The notes under the pieces were generated by a model, which saw nothing but the letters and a program-made list of their open reading frames with translations, ran no database searches and had not been told where the DNA came from. A DNA stretch of 64,000 nt from positions 47,740,001 through 47,804,000 of the forward strand of contig JAGIQG010000011.1 in the NCBI GenBank assembly GCA_024679065.1, given 5' to 3'. How positions within the stretch are numbered: the stretch's first letter is position 1; every line of letters starts with the position of its first letter. The DNA is from Sphyrna mokarran (Eukaryota). The position numbers and the translations under genes were made by a program. This document shows positions 1,952 to 55,820 of the stretch, piece after piece.

Positions 1952-3324
1952 GATGCCTCACAGAGTACAAGAAAGAAAAATGAACAGATAGCAAGGATGG
2001 GACTTACAACCTGCCATGTGTTTTGCAGCAGTGTGAGGTGGCCTGTCATTGGCCAGCAACAAGATCTTCTGCTTGCATTGTTGTGAATGGGTTTCCCATT
2101 GAATGAACCCCTCGCCACCATGACAATCCTGGCAGGAGTGCACCATTGGCTAGAATGGAAGATTCCTGCTGGCATGAACAACCGGACAGTTCCAACTCAG
2201 GTACTGCTGTACCAGGAGAAAGATTAGAGAAGGCAAACAAAGATATTGCCAGATCAAGTTTGGCAAGAGTTTTTAAAAGTTTTTAATGAAAGTTCAATGG
2301 TTGAGATATTAAAGCTTCTGGAGTATGGGATAAGGGAAACAAAATAGATCAGAGTTGGAATAGAGTATAGCTGAAACATTTGGCTGGAGGAGATTACAGA
2401 GATGGAGCAAGATATTTGTAAGCAAAAATAAGATTTTGAAAGTCAACACATTAGGACAGGGTGTCAATTTAGATCAACCTTGACAATGGGCAGGTAGAGG
2501 AAGCAGCAGCTGGAGTTTTAAATAAGTTGATTTTAGAAGTAGGATGATATTCAGGTCAACATAAGGTCATCAGAGAAGTTAAGTCCAAATGTGAAGAAAG
2601 GTTTGAATGAAGATTTCAGCGATGATAGGGCTGTAGTAAGGGTAGAGATACTGTAGAGGTGGACATAGACGAACTTAATGATGAGTAAGATGTGATGTTC
2701 AGCTCGAGATTACATAGGATGCTGAAATTGTACAACATATAAAGTTGAGCTTCAGAAAACAGCCAGGATTTTGGGGGGCGTGTAGCCTATTGAGGATAAT
2801 CACAGGCTTCAATACAGATTACAATTATCTGTGATCTTCCAATGACTTGGTTGCCAAGTACACAACCAACATACGATGGGATATTTCAGCTTTCACCCAT
2901 TGTCTGTATTGAGTTCAATGGTCTCTGCCAGGGCAGCTTCTGGGAATGAATAATAAACTTCAGCATCCCTGTGACAAATGGTTACAGTTTTGAAACCATT
3001 ACATATCCACTGGTCTTGCTGAAAAATGCATGCATATGGATGTCAGAACTGAACAGGATCAGGTTTTGCTACACTGCAGAGTGACACAGCTTCCTGACAC
3101 AGCTTCCTGACAGTTGCTAGCGATATTCACAAGAGGAAAAAAATTCACCTGGTCAGGTACCAGAAAGGCAGCTGCAGAATAATAAAAAAAAGACGTGCAA
3201 GTATATTGCTGCTTTCACCAACTCAAAGCATCCCAAAATACTTTGCAGCCAATACAATACTTCCGAGGCGTAATGTTGAAATCTGTATCTTAGCCCCTAA
3301 GTGTTCTCCATTGTCGTAAAATAG

Positions 3325-3628
3325 AATCTCATAGAATCTTACAGTACAATAGGAGGCCATTCGGCTCATAGAGTCTGCACCAGCCACAATCCCACCCTGG
3401 CCCTTTCCCCATAACCCCATGCATTTAATCTTGCTAACCCCCCACCGACAGTAAGGTGTAATTTATCAGGGCCAATCTACCTAACCCACACATCTTTGCA
3501 CTATGGGAGGAAACCACGCAGATACGGGGAAAATGTACAAACTCCACACAGATAGTGACCCAAGCCGGGATTCAAACCCGAGTCCCTGGCACTGTGAGGC
3601 AGTAGTGCTAACCACTGTGCCACCACAC
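3325..3628 (-). mobile_element. HE1-type tRNA-derived V-SINE
   Basis: Minus strand reads gtggcacagtggttagcact (A box)...gggtttgaatccc (B box)...gtgtggagtttgtacattttccccgt, ending in a CR1-like tail. Confidence 0.85.
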
Positions 3629-14770: not shown

Positions 14771-16799
14771 AATATATTTGACAGCCCTTTGCAGATGAGT
14801 GGCTGCCTATGAGCACAACTTGTTGTCATTATCTTGACGAGGTCCTGCCGCCAAAATGGCTCAGGCCTCCTACCACTATGATAATGTACACATGTTTATG
14901 CTTGATCAACATTAAATCAGGTCTAATGTACTTTAGCACAATGCATTATAACAACAAAAAATAACATATTTTCCATACAAAGTTGGTGCCTTTGAAAGGC
15001 GACAATATCCTCCAGTTGGTGACTAATTCATAGAATCCTATAGTGCAGAAGAAGATCCATCAAGTCCGCATGGATTCTTACCCAGGCTTCCCCTGTAACC
15101 CCATGTATTTACCCCACTAATTCCCAGAACCAATAATTTTGGGCTACTAAGAGGCAATTTAGCACAGCCTTGGGTCATCCACAGATTGAATAATTCAGAG
15201 ACCCCATCAAATCCTTAATTTTTTAATCCCTCTATGGTTGACCACCCTATCGTGCGTTCTTTCTGCAAACTCCTCCAGCAACATATTATCCCCAAATCTC
15301 ACTGTTTCTTTGACTCCAGCCTCATGTCCAATCTACTTGCTTTCACCCCAATGTTGGTATTTTGTGTATTCAATCATTTGGGCCTTACTTTCTGGGATTT
15401 ACTGTCATTTACCCTCTTTTTGGCCAAGCTGAGGTGATACACGGAATACAGTGTTGAAGCTTTACATCATGCATCCATCAGGACATTGCACAAGAATATC
15501 AATAGTAAAGGGAACAACAATTTATACTATATGAGAAAAGAGTGCTGATTGGTTGGCAAGTGGATTCTGACTGGTAGAGATGTTACCGAGGAGACTGCAC
15601 CTCGAACAGTTAACTGCCAAGCTTGTGCTCAAATTCAAATTGAGCATTCTGATTGATCAAGGCACTACCAAAGGGAATGAACCAGGAAATGGCGGTTCCC
15701 TCAAATTTTTGCTTAGTTGAAAAAAGAATGCAGAGGCATGCTCCTTCTGTCTGAGAAGCACAGGGCTGTGTGTGTGAATATATGTGGCTTCTAGCTCATA
15801 TAAGAAAACCACATTACGTGCACAATGTCTTGACAACATGTCTCTTTTTTCAGTCATACTCAAGTCTGGTACTACCAAACAATTATAAACTTGGAATCGT
15901 TCCTCATAATTTCTGTTTCTTTCTGATGAACAGCAACAGTGACAATGGCATTGTAATATCTATTACTGCACCTTGAGTGACATTAGGACATAGTGGCCCA
16001 GGCAATGGCCTTATCCAACATCAATATTAGACACATCAGTCAGGATACTGTCATGCAAGTCTGACCCCATTGCAATTTTCAAACAATCTAAGAACCTTCT
16101 GCTAAAGAGAAGGCATTCACTCAAAACTCAGCTTTGCAGTCAGTCACAATTGTACTTGTGTCATTATTTAAAGAGCACTTGCAGATAAGTGGATGAATCA
16201 TTGGATCTGTTGTGACATACATTACTGATTTCTTCAAAGTTGTTGAAGGTTTTTTTCTGGACTTGAGGAACTCCTTAGAAGGCAGATAGTCTGATTAAAA
16301 TAGGAGTAATTACAGTACTTTTTAATAGTGATGGAGGAAGAAAAGCAGGAACAGTAGCAACAACACGGAGAACCATAACTGCTGAGAAGACAGCAAGAAT
16401 CTTGCAAGGGAGCAAGAGTATGACTGCATCCAGTACTTACAATTATTTATCACAACTTTTTGATGGAGTAATTAGTGCAAAGGCCATGAAATTGTAACTG
16501 CACAGTGTCACCCACTCCAGTCTGACTTGATCCAACATATAATGAGGGTAATGCTTTGCCAGTGAATGTCAAGATGACTATGGCCCAAACTCCTTTTCCT
16601 CTGTGTCCATTCGAGCTGCAGCAAATGACATGGTGCCTAATAACTAATCTGTCTAATGGACAGATTTTGTGTTTGACAGACAAAAATGCCTTATTTCAAA
16701 AGACAGCAAGTACAGATCTTTTTCCATGGAAAGCAGAGGTTAATCTGAGTGGACTGTTTGCTTCTGTGGGATCACAAAGTAAGAAGGACAATAGATTTT

Positions 16800-17115
16800 T
16801 TTTGCAACTTTATTCCAATCTAATCAAGTCAAATTAAAGCCAATTCAGAGTCCCAACAAGTTGGGACATTCCCGATCCAAGCTGACAAGACAGGGCTCTC
16901 ACCACCTGTCTTGGGCTTGATCTATATGATCCAAGCTGATTGGAGTAAGTATAGCTCCTCCTCCAAGGCTTGAGCTAAGTTGTATTTTAGCCAAAAGGCC
17001 GAGATGCCGCTTTAAAAAATTGCTTCAAATGAAGCTGAAATGTAACCTAATGACTTCAACCAAGTACAACATGTCGACACTACACTTGATCTTAGCCAAA
17101 AGGCCGAGTAGCGAA
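16800..17115 (-). mobile_element. U2 snRNA-headed retroposed element with short A-tail and 16-bp TSD
   Basis: 17079-17114 on the minus strand equals U2 nt 2-37 with 1 mismatch; second U2 match (nt 7-24) at 16987-17004; TSD aaggaca[a/g]tagatttt at 16784-16799 and 17116-17131. Confidence 0.85.
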
Positions 17116-17741
17116 AAGGACAGTAGATTTTATACAGGTGCTGATGTCCTCACAATGAGTGTAAGACAGAGTGCACAGGAGGATCAAGTTTTAAAGAGCA
17201 GGAAAGTGTCAGCACAGTGACATTTGCTGGGAAAAAAGTGCAACCACTAGATAACAATCTGTAGCTCATGCTTCCCAATGAGGGGTCCACACACAATAAT
17301 TTGACCTCTCATAGTTTTTATCAAGTAGATCTTCCAATTGTCCCACATATCAGCATCAAATACCTGTATATGTTTTACATTACAACAGTCATTATCATCA
17401 AACTGGATCAAAAACTACTTGAAACTGCTTGTTGGCATCTGTACCAAAAAAGTCTGCAATTTCATTGCATCGAGCCAACTTTGTAGTATTTCTTCATCTG
17501 GAGGAATTTAAGCTTCAAGAACAGGCTAATTTCAGGCTGTTTCTATTATAATGTGATCCTTTAGGGCAATAAAACAGAAAGAACTTCCTTGAATCTTTTC
17601 ACTATTACTTTAAAGATGGAAAATGTTTTTATTGCAGCGCCGTGAAACAGAATCATTTGTGCGACCTTAAATTGGACAACTGTCCTTCAAACCTGACATT
17701 ATTTTCCAACGTAAAGAAAATATTTTAAAAGTTGTATTTAC

Positions 17742-17988
17742 CTTTTCCAGATGGAAAGAAGCACTCCATCTCCACACTGCTGCGTGAATGAGAAATGCAG
17801 AGTGTACTGCTGGGAACCAAACCTTCTAATGGAGGACTTCTATCTGTCGTACGCACTAAGCACCAGCCAGGTCTTTCACTTGGTCTCTCCAATAGCTCAA
17901 CAGTCTGTCCTATTTGGATGCTGAGTTCACTGTTGTTGCCGGCTAAGAAGTCTTGTAACACTACGGTCAATTCACAGCCTCCAGAAAG
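17742..17988 (-). CDS. KALRN: Kalirin first SH3 domain exon (LSGGCELTVVLQDFLAGNNSELSIQIGQTVELLERPSERPGWCLVRTTDRSPPLEGLVPSSTLCISHSRSSVEMECFFPSGK)
   Basis: Inside ORF 17725..18180. Acceptor tttccccaacag|CTT, donor AAAG|gtaaat; 247 nt, phase 0 to 1; kalirin-type SH3 sequence. Confidence 0.96.
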
Positions 17989-20371
17989 CTGTTGGGGAAA
18001 CAGATGTTTTGATATAATGACAAGTGTTTGGATTATAATAATATAACATGATGATAACAATTTGGCAAAAAGGTTGAAATCTTTGAAGATTGTAGGATTT
18101 CTATTACATTGAGTTTGTTCTTTTTCAAAATTTTTGGTTGAAATCAAATAATGTTTCTCTTCATGTGAGCCAATGCTCACGGACCTGAAACATTAACTCT
18201 GTTTTTCTCTCCATAGACATGCCAAGTGCTTCCAGCATTTTCTGCTTTACTTCAATACTAAATCAACATGTTTCAAAGGTTCAATAACTTCTCTTCAAGC
18301 ACAGCTGACCAAGCAAAACTTGTAGCTGTATGGACTAAATTGTTCCATTCCTATAATCAGGCTGTTTAATTCCCCATTGGTCAGCTCAGCAACCATTTCC
18401 CTCTCCAGAAGTATCCTAATCCTGCAAGTCACACATTTTACTGTCCCTGTTTCAAAAATCATTCGAGGTTGTATACTAGTATTGCACACATTGGTGTTTG
18501 CAGTCAATTGCATCAAGTCAAAATGTTTGCATTCCTTCAACAGAGGATGCTTAATCTGTCATAAGGAGGGCACTTTCAAACTGTTTCTGAATAACATGAT
18601 CCTTTGTGGTAGTGTCTTTATAGAAATAACTTTGTTGATCAGGTAAATGATTCTTCTACTGTTGATGACATTCACAGCGCATTGAAGTTGTCAACCTCCA
18701 ACAGCTTTGCAAGTCCAGATTTGGGACCCAAATACGGTACTGAGTTGCATTGATCTGATAAAGTTTAGTTTAACAATTGCATAGGTTGCTAGTTTCTGTT
18801 CAAGCACAGTTTGCTGAGACTATATCTTAATTTGAAAATCTTATTTAAATTTTCAGGATTACAATTTAGAGATCTTTTTCTAAAACCCATATAAAATGAA
18901 GCTCACTTAATGGGTAACCGTGAAATCCATGATTTAACTTGTCAGGCTAAAGTATCAGTCTCTGAAAATCTACAGCAACTCCAATGGAACCCTATTGTAA
19001 CCTTGGCAACAACTCATTGGAATCAGTTTGGAATACAGATGGACCCGGTTCCAGAATTAAACCACAGTTTCTAAAATGGCCTTTTGAGGGCTTGAACCCA
19101 CCTGTTTCTACAAGACCATCAACATAAAGGAGGGTTAAACCTTCCTATAATATGGCAACATGGTAACATAGTGATAAGGTAACTGGACCAGTAATCCAGA
19201 AGCTGTCTCTGTTGGGACATGGATTCAAAGCATGAATCCATGCAGCACAGCAGCTGGTAGAGTTTAAATTAATTTAATACACCTGGAATATAAAATTAAT
19301 CTCAGTAATAGTGACTATGAGGACTGTCATCAATTGTTGTAAAATGTCCTCCAGGGAAAGAAGTCTGTTGCCCTTACTTGGTCTGCTTTACATGTGACTC
19401 CAGACCCACAGCAATGTGGCTGACTCTTAATTGCCCTCTGAACTGACCCAGCAAGTCGTTTAATTCATGGGAAAATTTGGGGGGCCCACAAATGCTCAGC
19501 CTGCCAGCAATACCCACATTCTGTAAAAGAATAAGAAATAAAATTGCAAAATTGCAGATCTATCCTATTCATACTACATGATCATTTAGTTTCTTTTCAA
19601 CACATCACATTAAGTGCCAGTCTGTCATCACCTAATTGGTTCCTGGTCCAGCAAAACCTCACATTTTAAATTCTTACTCTTATGTTCAATCTCTCTATGG
19701 TCTTGCCCTTCCCTTTCTCTGTAACTTCCCCAGCCTATATTGGCACAATGTAGTGGACTTTGTGGAAAATGGATCAAATATATCAGCTGTTCTCTCTCTT
19801 CTACATCATTTAATTGGCATTAAAATCTGTTCTTACTGAACAAAATGTAAATTTAGATAAGCAGTTATAGAGGGCATTTGTGTGTGTGTTTGTGTGGATG
19901 GGTGGGGTTGAAATTTAGATGCTAATTTTAATTATCCACTGAATTTATTGAACTGAATCTATCCTGAAGTGGCCAGTTCGTGGAGTGAAATCAAGTTGCA
20001 TTCTCGCATCCTCCAGAAGTATGGCTGTACAGGATCTGGCACATTACTAACTGTCTGATACTAATGATATTCTGAAAGAATCTTGTCAATCATCAAATTC
20101 AAATTCTCTTCCTGCTTAGCCGCCAACATTGATGTCTTATCACATTCCGAGTACTTACACCATTGTGCCTTATTCCACATTTTTCCATGTTAAAATTCAT
20201 CTACCTCAAGTGGTTCTTTCTACTTATTATCTTTTCACAATGTTTTCTGCACATCAGTGAATTCAGAACACCAGGGAAACCATAAATTTCAGTGGAACCA
20301 GAGGAGGTAATTCAAGAGTATGCATTGAGTTGGATAAAATGCACGTTCGAACAATGGCATAAAAATATAAT

Positions 20372-21602: not shown

Positions 21603-23018
21603 GAACATAGAACATAGAACATAGAACATTACAGCACAGAACAGGCCCTTCGGCCTTCGATGTTGCGCCGACCAATATAAAAAGCAATGCCCCTCCAAAC
21701 TTAAACCATTCCCTTCTCTTCCATATACTTATCAACTAACCTCTTAAACGCCACCAAACTTGGCGCATCCACAACTGCTCCAGGCAGGGCATTCCACTCC
21801 CGAACCACCCTTTGGGTAAAGAACCTGCCTCTGATATCCGTCCTATAACTATCACCCCTTAATTTACAGCTGTGTCCCCTCGTGCTAGCTTTTTCCATCC
21901 TAGGAAAAAGGCTATCACTGTCCACCCTATCTAAACCTCTAATCATCTTATATGTTTCGATCAGGTCCCTCTTAGCCTCCTCCTTTCTAACGAAAACAAC
22001 CTCAAATCCCTCAGCCTCTCCTCATAAGACCTGCCCTCCATACCAGGCAACATCATGGTAAACCTCCTCTGTACCCTCTCCAATGCCTCCACATCTTTCT
22101 TATACTGTGGGGACCAGAACTGCACACAATACTCCAAGTGCGGCCGCACTAGAGTTTTGTACAGTTGCAACATGACGTTGCGGCTCCGAAATTCAATCCC
22201 TCTACCAATAAAAGCCAAGACTCCATATGCCTGCCTAACAACCTTCTCGACCTGACTGCCTACTTTCAGGGATCTATGCACATACACACCAAGATCCCTC
22301 TGTTCATCTAGACTACTAAGAATCCTACCATTTGCCCTATACTCTACACATTTATTATTTCTGCCATAGTGCAGTACCTCACACTTTTCCACATTAAACT
22401 CCATTTGCCACCTCTCGGCCCAGCTCTGCAACTTGTCCAAGTCTCTCTGTAAACTATAACACCCCTCTTCACTATATACCACTCCACCGACTTTAGTGTC
22501 ATCTGCAAATTTACTAATCCATCCTTCAATACCCTCATCCAGATCATTTATAAAAATTACAAACAGCCGGGGCCCCAAAACAGACCCCTGAGGTACACCA
22601 CTTGTCACCGAACTCCAAGATGAATATCTCCCATCAACCACCACCCTCTGTCTTCTATCTGCTAGCCAATTCCTAACCCAATTAGCTAAATCACCCTCTA
22701 TCCCATACATCTGCATTTTCTGCAGAAGTCTTCCATGGGCCACCTTATCAAACGCCTCACTAAAGTCCATATATACCACATCAACCGCCTTACCCCCATC
22801 CACCTCTTTGGTCACTTTTTCAAAAAACTCAATGAGGTTAGTAAGGCACGACCTACCCTTCACAAAACCATGCTGACTATCTCCAATCAATCCATTACTC
22901 TCTAAATAACTATAAATCCTATCCCTAATTATTCTCTCCAACACTTTGCCCACCACAGAAGTAAGACTCACTGGCCTATAATTCCCTGGAAGGTCTCTCT
23001 TCCCCTTCTTGAACAAAG
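21603..23018 (-). mobile_element. Young 5'-truncated CR1/HER1-like LINE (RT domain)
   Basis: 351-aa ORF with [19 protein letters not shown] and FADD motifs; (TTCTATG)n tail; one frameshift near 21961. Confidence 0.95.
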
Positions 23019-23469
23019 GAGAACTGCCTCTTCAGATGTCTTCAAAAATGGAAGTCACACGTGAGTAAAGATCTTCCCAGCTTCAGGAATGAAATGAAGC
23101 AACCTTTAAGTATAAAATGATGTTAATGAAAGAGCGTCTTGTTCTGTAAACTGTTATGGTGGAGCATGTCTGTAGGGGACTGGCTCTTCTCTAACACTGC
23201 CTAATTCTCTTGGCTTACATGACTGCTGATGACTCAGCTTTCTTTTCCATCTCCAACATTTAAAAAATAACGTAGCAAATAATATTCACATGTTTTTGGA
23301 TGTGGAAGATTCAGTGTGGCCAAGCTTTTTGATTTTCTGAGGGAAGTGCTTACCCACATCAACTGTAGTAAACCCTACAGAGAATGTTGTTTATTTAAGA
23401 ACTTCTAAAAGACATTTGCTAAATAATTCAATGCAAAACTTGAGTTTTGGTGTCACAAGTTGGCTTACA

Positions 23470-35659: not shown

Positions 35660-37000
35660 ACTTTGTTGTGGGCAAAGTATTGGAAAAAATTATTAGGGAT
35701 AGGATTTATCGTTATTTAGAGAGAAACGAATTGATTGGGGATAGTCAGCATGGTTTTGGAAGGGTAGGTCATGCCTTACTAACCTTATTGAGTTTTTTGA
35801 AAAAGTGACCAAAGAGGTGGATGGGGGTAAGGCAGTTGATGTGATATATATGGACTTTAGTAAGGCATTCGATAAGGTGGCCCATGGAAGGCTTCTGCAG
35901 AAAATGCAGATGTATGGGATTGAGGGTGATTTAGCTAATTGGATTAGGAATTGGCTAGCAGATAGAAGACAGAGGGTGGTGGTTGATGGAAGATATTCAT
36001 CATGGAGTTTGGTTACAAGTGGTGTACCTCAGGGATCTGTTTTGGGGCCCCTGCTGTTTGTAATTTTTATAAATGATCTGGATGAGGGTATTGAAGGATG
36101 GATTAGTAAATTTGCGGATGACACCAAAGTCGGAGAGTGGTAGATAGTGAAGAGGGGTGTTCTAGTTTGCAGAGAGACTTGGACAAGTTGCAGAGCTGGG
36201 CCGAGAGGTGGCAAATGGAGTTTAATGCGGAAAAGCGTGAGGTAATTCACTTTGGCAGGAATAACAAATGTGTAGAGTATAGGGCTAATGGTAGGACTCT
36301 TAATAGTGTTGATGAACAGAGGGATCTTGGTGTATATGTGCATAGATCCCTGAAAGTAGGCAGTCAAGTCGAGAAGGTTGTTAAGAAGGCATATGGAGTC
36401 TTAGCTTTTATTGGTAGGGGGATTGATTTTCGGAGCCGCAACGTCATGTTGCAACTGTACAAAACTCTAGTGCGGCCGCACTTGGAGTATTGTGTGCAGT
36501 TCTGGTCCCCGCTTTATAAGAAAGATGTGGAGGCATTGGAGAGGGTACAGAGGAGGTTTACCAGGATGTTGCCTGGTATGGAGGGCAGGTCTTCTGAAGA
36601 GAGGCTGAGGGATTTGAGGTTGTTTTCGTTAGAAAGAAGGCGGCTAAGAGGAGACCTTATTGAAACATATAAGATGATTAGAGGTTTAGACAGGGTGGAC
36701 AGTGATAGCCTTTTTCCTAGGATGGAGAAAGCTAGCATGAGGGACATAGCTTTAAATTAAGGGGTGGTAGTTATAGGACGGATGTCAGAGGTAGGTTCTT
36801 TACCAGAGGGTGGTAAGGGTATGGAATGCCCTGCCTGCTGCAGTTGTAGATGCGCCAAGTTTGGTGGCGTTTAAGAGGTTAGTAGATAAATTTATGGATG
36901 AAAAGGGAATGGTTTAGGTTAGAGGGTCATTGCTTTTTCTTAATTGGTCGGCGCAACATCGAGGGCCGAAGGGCCTGTTCTGCGTTGTAATGTTCTATGT
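35660..37000 (+). mobile_element. Young 5'-truncated CR1/HER1-like LINE
   Basis: ORFs 35805 and 36137 are nearly identical to the 21603 and 54319 copies, in the opposite orientation. Confidence 0.95.
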
Positions 37001-37758
37001 AATTCATTTGGTAAGAGTAACTGGAGTACAGAGTATAGGGCTATCGTAAGGACTCTTAGTAGTGTTGACGAGCAGAGAGATCTCGGTGTACATGTGCATA
37101 GCTCCCTGAAAGTTGGCACTCAGGTTGATAAGGTTGTTAAGAAGACGTATGGTGTGTTAGCTTTTATTGGTAGAGGGATTGAATTTCGGAGCTGTGAGGT
37201 CATGTTGCAGCTGTACAAAACTCTGGTGCAGCCGCACTTGGAGTATTGCATACAGTTCAGGTTGCCACATTATAAGAAAGATGTGGAAGCATTAGAAAGG
37301 GTGCAGAAGAGCTTTATCAGGACGTTGCCTGGTATGGTGGGAAGGTCTTATGAGGAAAGGCTGAGGGACTTGAGATTATTTTCGTTAGAGAGAAGAAGGT
37401 TAAGAGATGACCTAATTGAGGCATCCAAGATGATCAGAGGGTTAGATAGGGTGGACAATAACAGCCTTTTTCCTCAGATGGTGATGGCTAACATGAGGGA
37501 ACAAAGATTTAAATTAAGAGGTGGTAGTTATAGGACGGATGTTAGATGGTAGGTTCTTTACTCAGAGGGTAGTAAGAGCATGGTATGCCCTGCCTGCAGC
37601 AGTTGTGAACTCACCAACTTTAAGGGCGTTCACATGGTCAGTGGACAGGCATTTGGATAACATTGGAATAGTTTAGGTTAGCGGGTCATCAGATTGCTTC
37701 CACTGGTCGGCGCAACATCGAGGACCGAAGGGCCTGTACTGCGCTGTAATGTTCTATG
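37001..37758 (+). mobile_element. CR1 3' portion of a related subfamily; its first ~40 bp lie at 35620-35650
   Basis: ORF 36944..37552; agtttaatgtggaaaagtg..gaggta / attcatttggta is split by the younger copy. Confidence 0.88.
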
Positions 37759-51529: not shown

Positions 51530-54500
51530 AACTAGCAAAAAACAAAGTTGGAGATAAATGGCTTATTTTCAAAGTGGCAAATTATAACTACAGGGGAGCC
51601 ACAGCTGTGGCGCATCAACTTTTTACAGTCTATATTAATAATGTGGATGAGGGGCTGAGTATACTGTAACCAAATTTGCCGATGTTACGAAGATAGGCAG
51701 GAAAGCAAGCTGAGAAGGGAACAAAAAATCTGCAAAGGAATATAAATAGGTGTAAAACTTAGCAGATGGATTATAATTTGGGAAAATATGAAGTTGCCCA
51801 CTTTGGTAGGAAGAGAAAGGCAGAATACCATTCAAATGGAGAGAAAGTGAAGACTGCTGTGGTATAGAGAGACCTGTATTTTGGATTGGGGAGAGCGGAT
51901 TTTAGTAAAATAAGACAGGTTCTGGCTGGGGTAGACTGGAAACAATTACTACTGGGAGAATCTACAGAAAAGCAGTGGAGGCGGGGGCAGGATTCAAAAA
52001 AGAAAATGGGGAAGGTGCAAGCCCAGATTGTTTCCTGTAGGGTGATGGGCAGAATAACAAGACCAGAGAACCATGGATGACTAGAGATATTCAGGATACA
52101 ATGAGAAGAAAAAGAAAAACTTTTAAAAAGTACAAGGGGAGAAGATCAGTGGAGGCATTAGTGAGGCATTGAAAGTGTAGGGTGGAGCTTAAGAAAGCAA
52201 TTAGGAAAGCAAAGAACGGATATGAGAAAGCTCTGGCTGGTAACAGTAGGGAAAATCCCAAGATATTCTGTAAGTAGATCAATGAGAAAAAAGATAACCA
52301 GAGAAAGAGTAGGGCCCATTAGGGACCAGGAGGCAATCTGTGGGTGAAGCCAGAGGACAGTGGTAGAATGGTGAATGAATACTTCACATCCGTCTTCACC
52401 CAAGAGAAGGAAGATGATGGTATGGAATTCAGGACAGAGACTGAAGTTCTTGAGCAAATTAACATATGGAAGGACAAAGAAAAGTGGACTTAAAAGTGGA
52501 TAAATCTCCAGGTCCAGATGAATTGTGCTCTAGGCTGCTGTGGGAGGCAAGGGAGGAGATTGCTGGGCTTTGACCCAAATTTTCAATTCCTCTCTGACCA
52601 TGGGGGAAGTGACAGATGACTGGAGAACAGCTAATGTGGTTCTGCTATTTAAAAAGGATTGTAGAGACAAATCAGGGAACTAAAGACCAGTGAGTCCCAT
52701 GTCAGCAGTACAGAAATTATTAGAGAAACTTCTGAAGGAGGAGATCTATCCTCTCTTGGAGAGGCAAAGCATGAACAGGGATAGTCAGCACGGCTTCATC
52801 AGAAAGAGGTATTGCCTAAAAATTTTGACTGAATTTTTTGAGGAGATGACCAGGTGTGTAGATGAGGGTAGTGCAGTCAATGTAGTTTATATAGATTTCA
52901 GCAAAGCCTTTGACAAGGTCCCACATGGGACACTTGTAAAGAAGATAAATTCATATGGGACGCAGGGTAATTTGATAAAGTGGATTCGAAATTGGCTCAG
53001 TTGTAGGACTTGGGCTGATGACAGAAGGCTGCTTTAGTGACTGACTGGAAGCCAGTGTCCAGTCACATACACAAGGATCTGTGCTGGACCCCCTATTATT
53101 CATCGTTTATATAAATGACATTGATGACTATGTGACAGGGGGAGATGGAGTCAATAAATGGTAGGACACTGTGGAACAAAGGGACCTTGGCACGTTTGTC
53201 CACTGATCTCTGAAAGCGGAAGTCATGTTAGTAGGGTGGTGAAAAAGGCATATGGGATACTCACCTTCACCAATTGAGGCATATGTTACAAAAACAGAGA
53301 GATCATGTCGGAGTTGTATAGCATTTTGGTGAGGCCGCAACTGGGGTACTGTGTGGAATTCTGGTTGCCATTTTATCAGAAGGATGTGATTGCACTGGAG
53401 AGGGTGCAGTCTGGCATAGAAAAGTTAAGCTATGAAAAGAAGCTACATAGGCTTGGGTTGTTTTCATTGGAGCAGAGAAGATTGAGGGGAAGGCCTGATC
53501 CATGTGTACAAGATAAGGAGAGACATGGACAGAGTGGATAAAGAGCAACTGTTCCCTTTAGTTGAGGGGTCAGTCACAACAGGACATAGATTCAAGATGA
53601 AGGGAAGGAGGTTTTGGGGAGATGTGAAGAAAAACATTATTACCCTCCCAGGCAGCATATACCAGACTACCACCACCCTCTGGGTAAAGAGGCGGTTGCC
53701 TCACATCCTTTAAGAAATATCTGGATGAACATTTAGCACATCATAACATTCATGGTTATGGGCCAAGTGATGGCAGATAGGATTAGGTAAGAGTTCAGGT
53801 GTTTCTAATGTGTTGGTGCAGACTCGATGGATGAAGGGCCTCTTTGGTGCTGTATGGTTCTATACGTGTCCTGGTACAAAGAGTTAGCATGCAGGTACAG
53901 CAAGTAATTAGGAAGATATAGTGAAGTTTTGCTATAACTGAATAGGGCAGTGATGGGTGACACATAGGAGTACTGTGTGTAATTTGGGTCTCCTTGTTGA
54001 GGAAGGAGTACACTTGCATTGGAGGCAATTCAGAGAAGGTTTATTATGTTGGTTCCTGGGATAAAGGAATCTCAGATTTCCAGGTTGTGATATGAAATAG
54101 TTGGACATATACCCATTGGTTTTGGAAGAATGAGAGGTGATCTTATTGAAAAATACAATGTTCAAAGGGCCCTGATAAGGTAGATACTGAGAGGATTTTC
54201 CTGTCTGGGAAAATCTGGAACCGGGGCACAGTTTAAAAATAAAGGGTCTCTCATTTAAGACAGAGAGGTGGGTTAATAAAAGATAATTAATTTAAGATAT
54301 TCTTTATCCCACAGAATATAGAACATAGAACATAGAACATTACAGCGCAGAACAGGCCCTTCGGCCTTCGATGTTGCGCCGACCATTATAAAAAAGCAAT
54401 GACCCTCCAAACTAAACCATTCCCTTCTCTTCCATAAACTTATCAACTAACCTCTTAAACGCCACCAAACTTGGCGCATCTACAACTGCCGCAGGCAGGG

Positions 54501-55820
54501 CATTCCACTCCCTAACCACCCTCTGGGTAAAGAACCTACCTCTGATATCCGTCCTATAACTATCACCCCTTAATTTAAAGCTGTGTCCCCTCGTGCTAGC
54601 TTTCTCCATCCTAGGAAAAAGGCTATCACTGTCCACCCTATCTAAACCTCTAATCATCTTATATGTTTCGATAAGGTCCCCTCTTAGCCGCCTCCTTTCT
54701 AACGAAAACAACCTCAAATCCCTCAGCCTCTCTTCATAAGACCTGCCCTCCATACCAGGCAACATCCTGGTAAACCTCCTCTGTACCCTCTCCAATGCCT
54801 CCACATCTTTCTTATAATGTGGGGACCAGAACTGCACACAATACTCCAAGTGCGGCCGCACTAGAGTTTTGTACAGTTGCAACATGACGTTGCGGCTCCG
54901 AAATTCAATCCCCCTACCAATAAAAGCTAAGACTCAGTATGCCTTCTTAACAACCTTATCGACTTGATTGCCAACTTTCAGGGATCTATGCACAAATACA
55001 CCAAGATCCCTCTGTTCATCAACACTATTAAGAATCCTACCATTAGCCCTATACTCTACACATTTATTATTCCTGCCAAAGTGCATTACCTCACACTTTT
55101 CCACATTAAACTCCATTTGCCACCTCTCGGCCCAGCTCTGCAACTTGTCCAAGTCTCTCTGCAAACTATAACACCCCTCTTCACTATCTACCACTCCACC
55201 GACTTTAGTGTCATCTGCAAATTTACTAATCCATCCTTCAATACCCTCATCCAGATCATTTATAAAAATTACAAACAGCAGGGGCCCCAAAACAGACCCC
55301 TGAGGTACACCACTTGTAACCGAACTCCACGATGAATATCTCCCATCAACCACCACCCTCTGTCTTCTATCTGCTAGCCAATTCCTAATCCAATTAGCTA
55401 AATCACCCTCTATCCCATACATCTGCATTTTCTGCAGAAGCCTTCCATGGGACACCTTATCGAACGCCTTACTAAAGTCCATATATACCACATCAACTGC
55501 CTTACCCCCATCCACCTCTTTGGTCACTTTTTCAAAAAACTCAATAAGGTTAGTAAGGCACGACCTACCCTTCACAAAACCATGCTGACTATCCCCAATC
55601 AATTCATTTCTCTCTAAAAAGAATAGTGGTGGCTGTTTCATTGAATATATGCAAGGCTGAAATAAATTTTTAATCTACATGCAAGACAAGGCTTATGGGG
55701 AGGCATGCAAGAAAATGGAGTTAAGGCCACAATCAGATCAGTCGTAATTTTTCTGAATGGTAGGGCAGGCTTGTGGGGCTAATTGACCTTCTACTTATTG
55801 CTCCCATTTCTTATGTTCTA
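51530..55820 (+). mobile_element. Nested CR1 cluster: old CR1 (51530-51880, 53870-54312, 55620-55820) interrupted by CR1 51880-53860 (+) and a young CR1 (-)
   Basis: RT motifs in ORFs 52690 and 53305; host sequence resumes after each insert. Confidence 0.8.
54319..55618 (-). mobile_element. Young 5'-truncated CR1/HER1-like LINE
   Basis: ORFs 54934 and 54412 are separated only by a point stop codon; (TTCTATG)n tail; possible 6-bp TSD agaata at 54313-54318 and 55620-55625. Confidence 0.95.

Follow-up and report, generated by a model that had tools for sequence, protein, structure and literature searches.

SINEs headed by a piece of small nuclear RNA, termed SINEU, were described from crocodilians by Kojima (2015; PMC4494074), who found none outside them, left their transcription open and proposed as their partner Tx1-Mar, which falls in a group clustering with Keno. 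The part of a 2017 review that takes them up cites them for crocodilians alone (PMC5381603), and the relevant part of a further article has their transcription as undemonstrated (PMC5786205). Keno and Utopia have 3' flanks that begin at U2 nt 39, according to the sections that give their targets (PMC4640811; target string PMC6136364). No U2-headed SINE from a shark appeared in the open literature that we searched, a scope that left Repbase Reports, Dfam, SINEBase and Kojima and Fujiwara (2004) outside.

The element analysed here lies in a window of 64,000 nucleotides (the whole stretch of Sphyrna mokarran DNA that was read), where it occupies 316 bases of the minus strand, 17115-16800. It is intronic, in sense orientation relative to its host gene, and sits about 600 bp downstream of an SH3 exon on the same strand; we take the host gene, from this exon, to be Kalirin/Trio-like. 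The original prediction, made from the letters of the window, had reported a U2 nt 2-37 head with one mismatch on the minus strand, and this is what we see. Its end point at about nt 37 holds for that match, but when the comparison is made with this genome's own U2 gene the homology runs on to nt 40 (37/39 identical over nt 2-40). Rfam also matches the head to U2 (E=4e-6, under the gathering score); at the gathering score the whole window gives 0 matches, and a local run near the element returns only U2 at E<1. The 16-bp target-site duplication (TSD) at 17116-17131 and 16784-16799, with 1 mismatch and a plus-strand edge reading ...GATTTT/A, is present as had been predicted, as is the A-run: an AATAAA at 16814-16809 is followed by a run of 8 A. 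The copy is also highly structured, as foreseen, with a folding z of -3.0 and 0/100 shuffles equally stable. The body, predicted as about 280 nt of non-U2 sequence, needs one correction: it contains U2 8-27 (16984-17003) and, next to the head, U2 11-39 in degenerate antisense form. The parts of the locus are as follows.

17725-18192, minus strand: open frame with the SH3-domain exon of the host gene (Pfam SH3_1 above cut-off)
17116-17131, minus strand: 5' TSD, 16 bp, 94% identical to the 3' copy
17076-17115, minus strand: U2 snRNA head, U2 nt 1/2-40, comprising stem-loop I and the branch-site recognition sequence (37/39 against the genome's U2 gene)
17044-17072, minus strand: degenerate antisense U2 11-39, predicted to form a long hairpin with the head (18/29 identical; helix 1 of the structure)
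17011-17035, minus strand: short hairpin, then an A-U6-A stretch (sequence and predicted fold)
16984-17003, minus strand: U2 nt 8-27 repeated, within an extended stem-loop (helix 3; 95% identity with the head)
16928-16976, minus strand: hairpin module 1, its outer stem motif common with module 2 (repeat families, fold)
16874-16923, minus strand: hairpin module 2, outer stem as in module 1 and inner stem different (repeat families, fold)
16850-16867, minus strand: 3' hairpin with a compensatory change among subfamilies, U-A in A/B and C-G in C (alignment, fold)
16809-16814, minus strand: AATAAA polyadenylation-type signal behind TTGATTGG-like repeats, also in B and C copies
16796-16803, minus strand: A-tail, its final four A overlapping the TSD (sequence)
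16784-16799, minus strand: 3' TSD (repeat match to the 5' copy)

The A-U6-A stretch is, by our assumption, Sm-site-like without the closing G, and doubles as a Pol III stop signal. T-runs occur both in the head (T4) and near nt 97 (T5-6); given these internal runs and the lack of any Pol III head (tRNA, 7SL, 5S) in Rfam, we rejected a classical Pol III SINE. A U1-like ATACTTAC in the window copy was likewise set aside as a private variant that the family majority does not have. Elsewhere in the window, at 21961-23031, 36122-37552 and 54412-55674, RT-like frames mark several broken LINE copies, presumably of CR1 type, a class that we assigned from the translation.

A single-copy body was to have refuted the prediction, but the body is multicopy: one 22-base motif within it occurs exactly 1,181 times across the 2.77 Gb searched, and the reversed control 0 times. 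An element search returned 3,527 candidates; among the 40 that were scored, the 39 others are 89-94% identical to the window copy over nearly its full length and have unrelated flanks. The family has at least 1,200 copies, and its true size is likely to be 2,000-3,500, an estimate made from sequence matches, because just 16/30 of the best copies hold the body motif exactly. More than 99% of copies lie outside U2 genes, and U2 3' flank was found in 0/60 sampled dispersed copies. The body was also expected to occur mostly with its U2 head, which it does: of the first 30 loci chosen by this 3' motif alone, 23 align through the head, while the other seven start at scattered points (query 60, 74, 97, 113, 162, 189 and 190), one of them having the head behind an internal gap. 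TSDs of 8-20 bp flank 20/60 copies compared with 3/176 swapped-flank controls. Where the head is intact (48/60 copies), the match to U2 climbs from 0.54 at +1 to 0.9-1.0 by nt 16 and has fallen to 0.00 at nt 41; upstream of +1 the match to 15 U2-promoter bases is at chance (0.08-0.40). The head-body junction is thus fixed at U2 nt 40 family-wide. The TTTT/A edge of the window copy does not extend to a family-wide target consensus, since 20 sites are A-rich before the cut with T or G after it.

A tree of 63 copies, whose layers were not sampled at random, resolves three age layers: subfamily A (7 copies, median 12.0% from its majority), B (22 copies, 7.5%) and C (34 copies, 5.3%), the last of which includes the window copy. 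The body majority carries an octamer motif, exact in 46/63 copies and mutated in the window copy (window ~16976-16985), and a CCAAT box in 44/63 (window ~16935-16941), with reversed CCAAT repeats near the tail; judged from sequence, these could be due to chance or be enhancer-like. Fourteen of the 24 listed sequencing runs (7 studies, at least 6 organisms), one of which may be the window's source, hold 0.29-0.57 of sampled C-copy words, which suggests that the family may be distributed more widely in sharks. The word fractions of 0.14-0.25 in five runs guessed to be RNA and of 0.07 in one recorded RNA run are not evidence of expression. Short 5' extensions, common or U2-like, precede the head in five copies (L004, L015, L009, L023, L030), and in two of these the extension lies inside the TSD. 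Four SINE copies (L107, L111, L122, L188) have a similar downstream flank, which suggests a possible second preferred target within another repeat.

The antisense arm abuts the head, and its 18/29 identities to U2 11-39 are equalled by 11/2000 shuffled bodies; 7/11 of its differences are A>G or C>T, with G-U pairing kept (p=0.04). In each of the three subfamily majorities the predicted fold pairs this arm with the head, so covering the branch-site recognition sequence. After the arm come, in order, the small hairpin, A-U6-A, U2 8-27, hairpin modules 1 and 2 with their common outer stem, the 3' hairpin and the tail with its AATAAA. Differences among the A, B and C majorities fall in 11/169 paired and 19/83 unpaired columns (Fisher p=3e-4, with the structure taken from B alone), a value that is optimistic because changes between subfamilies are clustered. 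When this structure is laid on 37 single copies, 93% of cells are paired and double changes number 24 compared with 15.6 +/- 4.2 after shuffling (8/500, relatedness among the 37 copies being uncontrolled). Only one pair, 266-278, is clearly compensatory (UA 17, CG 12 and UG 5 of 37 copies). RNAalifold on the 37 raw copies gives a weak and different structure with a covariation term of -0.31. Since the changes between majorities avoid stems while raw copies fold weakly, it is likely, on this modelling, that the structure was selected in the masters and that dispersed copies simply decay.

The genome holds a U2 array of four intact genes in a tandem repeat of about 8 kb (G000:C949:17326629-17351148). 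The original prediction had suggested an element resident in a U2 locus, and one was found in the 200 kb around this array, at the site used by Keno and Utopia (G000:C949:17389709-17390582). It has a single head and reads, in order, U2-type promoter, U2 1/4-37, A-type body, six A, U2 40-191 and U2 3' flank. On C771, a B/C-type copy without a promoter runs into U2 39-126. Genome-wide, U2 41-57 is preceded by an A-run in 13 matches, which fall at five places: the C949 resident, the C771 copy, two Tx1 3' ends and one unassigned place. An exact pattern joining B/C-type tails to U2 40+ gave 0 matches, and misses the known case too. Many dispersed U2 pseudogenes (L037-L047) include 20-30 nt of genomic 3' flank and, on sequence, seem to have been copied from 3'-extended precursors.

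Candidates for the master copies that the original prediction had said to look for, with a promoter upstream or U2 downstream, are the C949 resident, the C771 copy and a small set of promoter loci, although all the promoter-bearing ones are decayed. The U2 promoter pattern has seven matches, five before intact U2 and two before the element; a sixth U2 gene was found with another promoter pattern. The variant proximal-promoter motif has four matches, three directly before an element head (C949 twice, C557) and one unrelated. We label this motif a PSE on the assumption that its position and its conservation among U2 loci, together with the general PSE consensus, identify it as such. Three of the roughly nine U2-type promoters found thus precede the element, whose density is about one per Mb. 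No octamer (one mismatch or fewer) was found in the 700 bp upstream of an intact U2 gene. The C949 resident and C557 have about 900 bp of upstream flank in common at about 80%, the same repeat insertion included, and a genome search found no third locus with this flank. The body begins as A-type at the C949 resident and as B-type at C557; a shared flank with differing bodies is as expected if the promoter locus was a master lineage, and we read the two loci as probable relics of one. All three promoter-bearing loci are 14-15% from their majority, one of them has lost 11 bases before +1, and at C557 a Tx1 piece breaks off the body after its first 14 bases. Searches by promoter pattern, proximal motif, flank and tail found no subfamily C copy with a promoter or in a U2 gene; the assembly may have collapsed the U2 array, or the C master may have been lost.

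The retroposition partner had been expected to be of Tx1 type. A LINE 3' end joined to U2 46-191 adjoins the C949 resident copy, and Pfam identifies in the partner LINE, which has older and younger classes, a Tx1-type ORF1 domain (RBD_ZCCHC3) and a reverse transcriptase (RVT_1); an endonuclease/APE domain was not confirmed by Pfam in a 142-aa fragment. When Tx1 loci of about 3 kb each were collected with queries devoid of SINE sequence, the SINE body was present in 7/30 older and 10/30 younger loci (17/60), compared with 0/16 and 0/14 in controls (0/30). Neighbours agree in age, older Tx1 lying with A copies and younger Tx1 with B/C copies. At L163 one TSD is found three times: it precedes Tx1, separates Tx1 from the SINE and follows the SINE; similar arrays occur at L183, L195, L198, L206 and L207, and a SINE-SINE tandem at L002. 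U2 sequence from nt 39 follows the Tx1 3' end in 4/28 distinct younger loci and 0/29 older ones, queries excluded. From these sequence features the partner is a putative Keno-like LINE of relaxed specificity, and very probably it is this Tx1-type partner that mobilises the SINE. The other proposal, a Keno-type non-autonomous element, fails if it is taken to mean a deleted Keno, because the body has no homology to Tx1: the best match to a near full-length Tx1 plus the younger 3' part is 15-17 nt (E at least 0.21). Neither of the two Tx1 5' ends read carries the U2 head or the SINE body.

Several further arrangements were seen at Tx1 loci. Younger Tx1 3' UTRs form short tandem trains far from U2 genes (L179, L183, L187, L196, L202, L206), with spacers made of U2 38-50/60 pieces; the sequence suggests either that U2 flank was carried along by 3' transduction or that a transported target was hit repeatedly. 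Inverted SINE heads or full copies lie directly at Tx1 ends at L180 and L207, possibly through twin-priming-like events. The L163 array with its near full-length Tx1 (G000:C668:3905501-3915500) lies within a PRDM9/7-like gene, in an intron that separates the zinc-finger exon from the SET exons; the latter are 97-100% identical to a Mustelus asterias protein, which supports a shark as host. A PRDM7-like protein of M. asterias (P0001) joins KRAB-SET to a Tx1 ORF1 frame that is 79% identical here, and for this reason the insertion appears to be common to both species, the frame in that protein being either exonised or mis-annotated.

We put a probability of roughly 65% on the following reading: the family is a U2-headed SINE whose masters sit in U2 genes at nt 38-40 and are driven by the U2 promoter, and which a Keno-like Tx1 LINE retroposes. 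The cycle would begin with a U2 gene being broken at the Keno site by a short insert. Transcription by Pol II from U2 +1 would then cover U2 1-40 and the insert, and would stop at the AATAAA/A-run of the insert. The antisense arm over U2 11-39 would mask the branch-site and U6-pairing sequence, so that the chimeric RNA would be harmless to splicing. With no 3' tail in common between the two elements, the Tx1 ORF2 protein would take the A-tail for target-primed reverse transcription, at A/T-rich and loosely specific target sites, and sites cut earlier could be used again. Dispersed copies would likely be dead on arrival because the external promoter is lost, but a copy landing back in a U2 gene would regain one, so that masters could be renewed by re-targeting U2. 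The chances seem about even that the family is, in this fuller sense, a SINE that renews itself while lacking its own promoter, in which the head is the 5' part of the gene targeted by the Keno-like partner, re-insertion into U2 makes the masters and the antisense arm masks the branch-site sequence. As a counterpoint, a Keno-type endonuclease would put copies in U2 genes whether or not these acted as masters. Transcripts from snRNA promoters normally end at a 3' box, and such promoters are poor at making polyadenylated RNA, which counts against the proposal.

The same SINE and Tx1 partner could also be combined with a different source of transcripts, the masters using unrelated flanking promoters, co-transcription with Tx1 or an internal Pol II element, and the copies resident in U2 genes being a dead end. 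Such flanking promoters were proposed for crocodilian SINEU (Kojima, 2015; PMC4494074), and the 31-36 nt 5' extensions of L004 and L009 inside their TSDs, the SINE beside 17/60 Tx1 loci and the octamer (46/63) and CCAAT box (44/63) of the body would each suit one of these sources; the decay of the resident loci and the failure to find a promoter-bearing C copy also speak for it. It is harder to reconcile with copies whose 5' side ends at U2 +1 and has no shared sequence upstream, with an element behind 3 of ~9 U2-type promoters, which is far above a density of ~1/Mb, or with a single flank lineage whose promoter loci take in both subfamily A and subfamily B, and we regard it as unlikely. A functional U2-derived non-coding RNA gene, that is a variant snRNA of which the copies are processed pseudogenes, is a quite improbable source. 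It would account for the structure kept among subfamily majorities, for the Sm-like stretch between two hairpins and for three copies behind an snRNA-type promoter, but the genome holds no intact conserved locus (all three are decayed), the Sm-like stretch lacks its G, AATAAA and an A-tail stand in place of a 3' box, and successive subfamilies turn over, matched to Tx1 age classes.

Least probable by far, and largely refuted already, is that each copy arose as an independent template-switch chimera of U2 snRNA and a LINE 3' fragment, in the manner of mammalian U6-L1. Switching to U2 is documented (PMC4494074) and L009 has a duplicated U2-like 5' extension, but independent events would have to share a junction fixed at U2 nt 40 and a head in 23/30 copies picked by the 3' motif, with the other seven starting at scattered points. 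No copy extends into a longer shared element and the body matches no Tx1 part; furthermore, the body is complementary to the head, and therefore head and body evolved together.

The family offers named candidate source loci, in which a U2 promoter immediately precedes the element at the target site of Keno. The question of SINEU transcription becomes testable at these promoter-bearing loci, and U2-targeting Keno LINEs and U2-headed SINEs, which have been described separately, are linked in one proposed life cycle. Shark repeat annotation gains several thousand intron-embedded U2 fragments, by which U2 pseudogene counts are inflated. If masters are indeed renewed by re-insertion into U2 genes, the transcription of snRNA-headed SINEs would be explained, the target gene of a LINE would prove to be a possible source of a SINE head, and SINEU would have arisen in sharks independently of the crocodilian families.

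Likened by published description, the shark element comes under the general definition of SINEU and is a SINEU-type family outside crocodilians. It has a U2 1-40 head, about 300 nt of non-coding sequence, a poly(A) tail and TSDs, and the subfamily tree shows one fixed structure in many copies; mobilisation by the Tx1 clade is indicated by the 17/60 against 0/30 loci and by repeated TSDs, evidence that is circumstantial, as it was in Kojima (2015). Like crocodilian SINEU-1, -2 and -3, it is shorter than 500 bp with a 5' piece of U2 (or U1) and extra snRNA piece(s) in the body (PMC4494074). In both, TSDs and a poly(A) tail are present, oligo-T runs rule out Pol III, the 3' tail is not that of a LINE, a TSD is sandwiched by tandem insertions, and shared targets point to a Tx1-clade partner. 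The 5' extensions of L004, L009 and others resemble the recurrent 5' additions of crocodilian SINEU. Unlike SINEU-1, -2 and -3, it has a shark host and no Mariner target preference was seen; unlike SINEU as described (PMC4494074), it has copies at the Keno site, within or following U2 genes, and an antisense fold-back over the head.

The resemblance to Keno (Tx1 clade) and Utopia, as far as the target sections of their descriptions go (PMC4640811, PMC6136364), lies in a 3' flank that starts from U2 nt 39-40, in both resident-type copies and several Tx1 3' ends. In contrast to those LINEs, the shark element is 300 nt long and non-coding, has no sequence of the local Tx1, carries the U2 5' part and disperses. 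By analogy, and from the part of the account that covers them, Drosophila R2 SIDEs would be the closest precedent for a short element using its target gene's promoter: they too are short non-autonomous elements in a LINE-targeted multicopy RNA gene, with host-gene transcription, which is proposed here (PMC3414825). In that same account R2 SIDEs are deleted LINEs with a LINE 3' end and a ribozyme that cuts the host RNA, and are confined to rDNA (PMC3414825), whereas the shark element keeps the 5' end of the host RNA as its head and has spread genome-wide. Finally, U2 retropseudogenes and snRNA-LINE chimeras (PMC4494074) have in common with it a U2 5' piece, a TSD and an A-tail, and truncated U2 pseudogenes also occur in this genome; the shark family differs from them in its one fixed structure, its more than 1,000 copies and its subfamilies.
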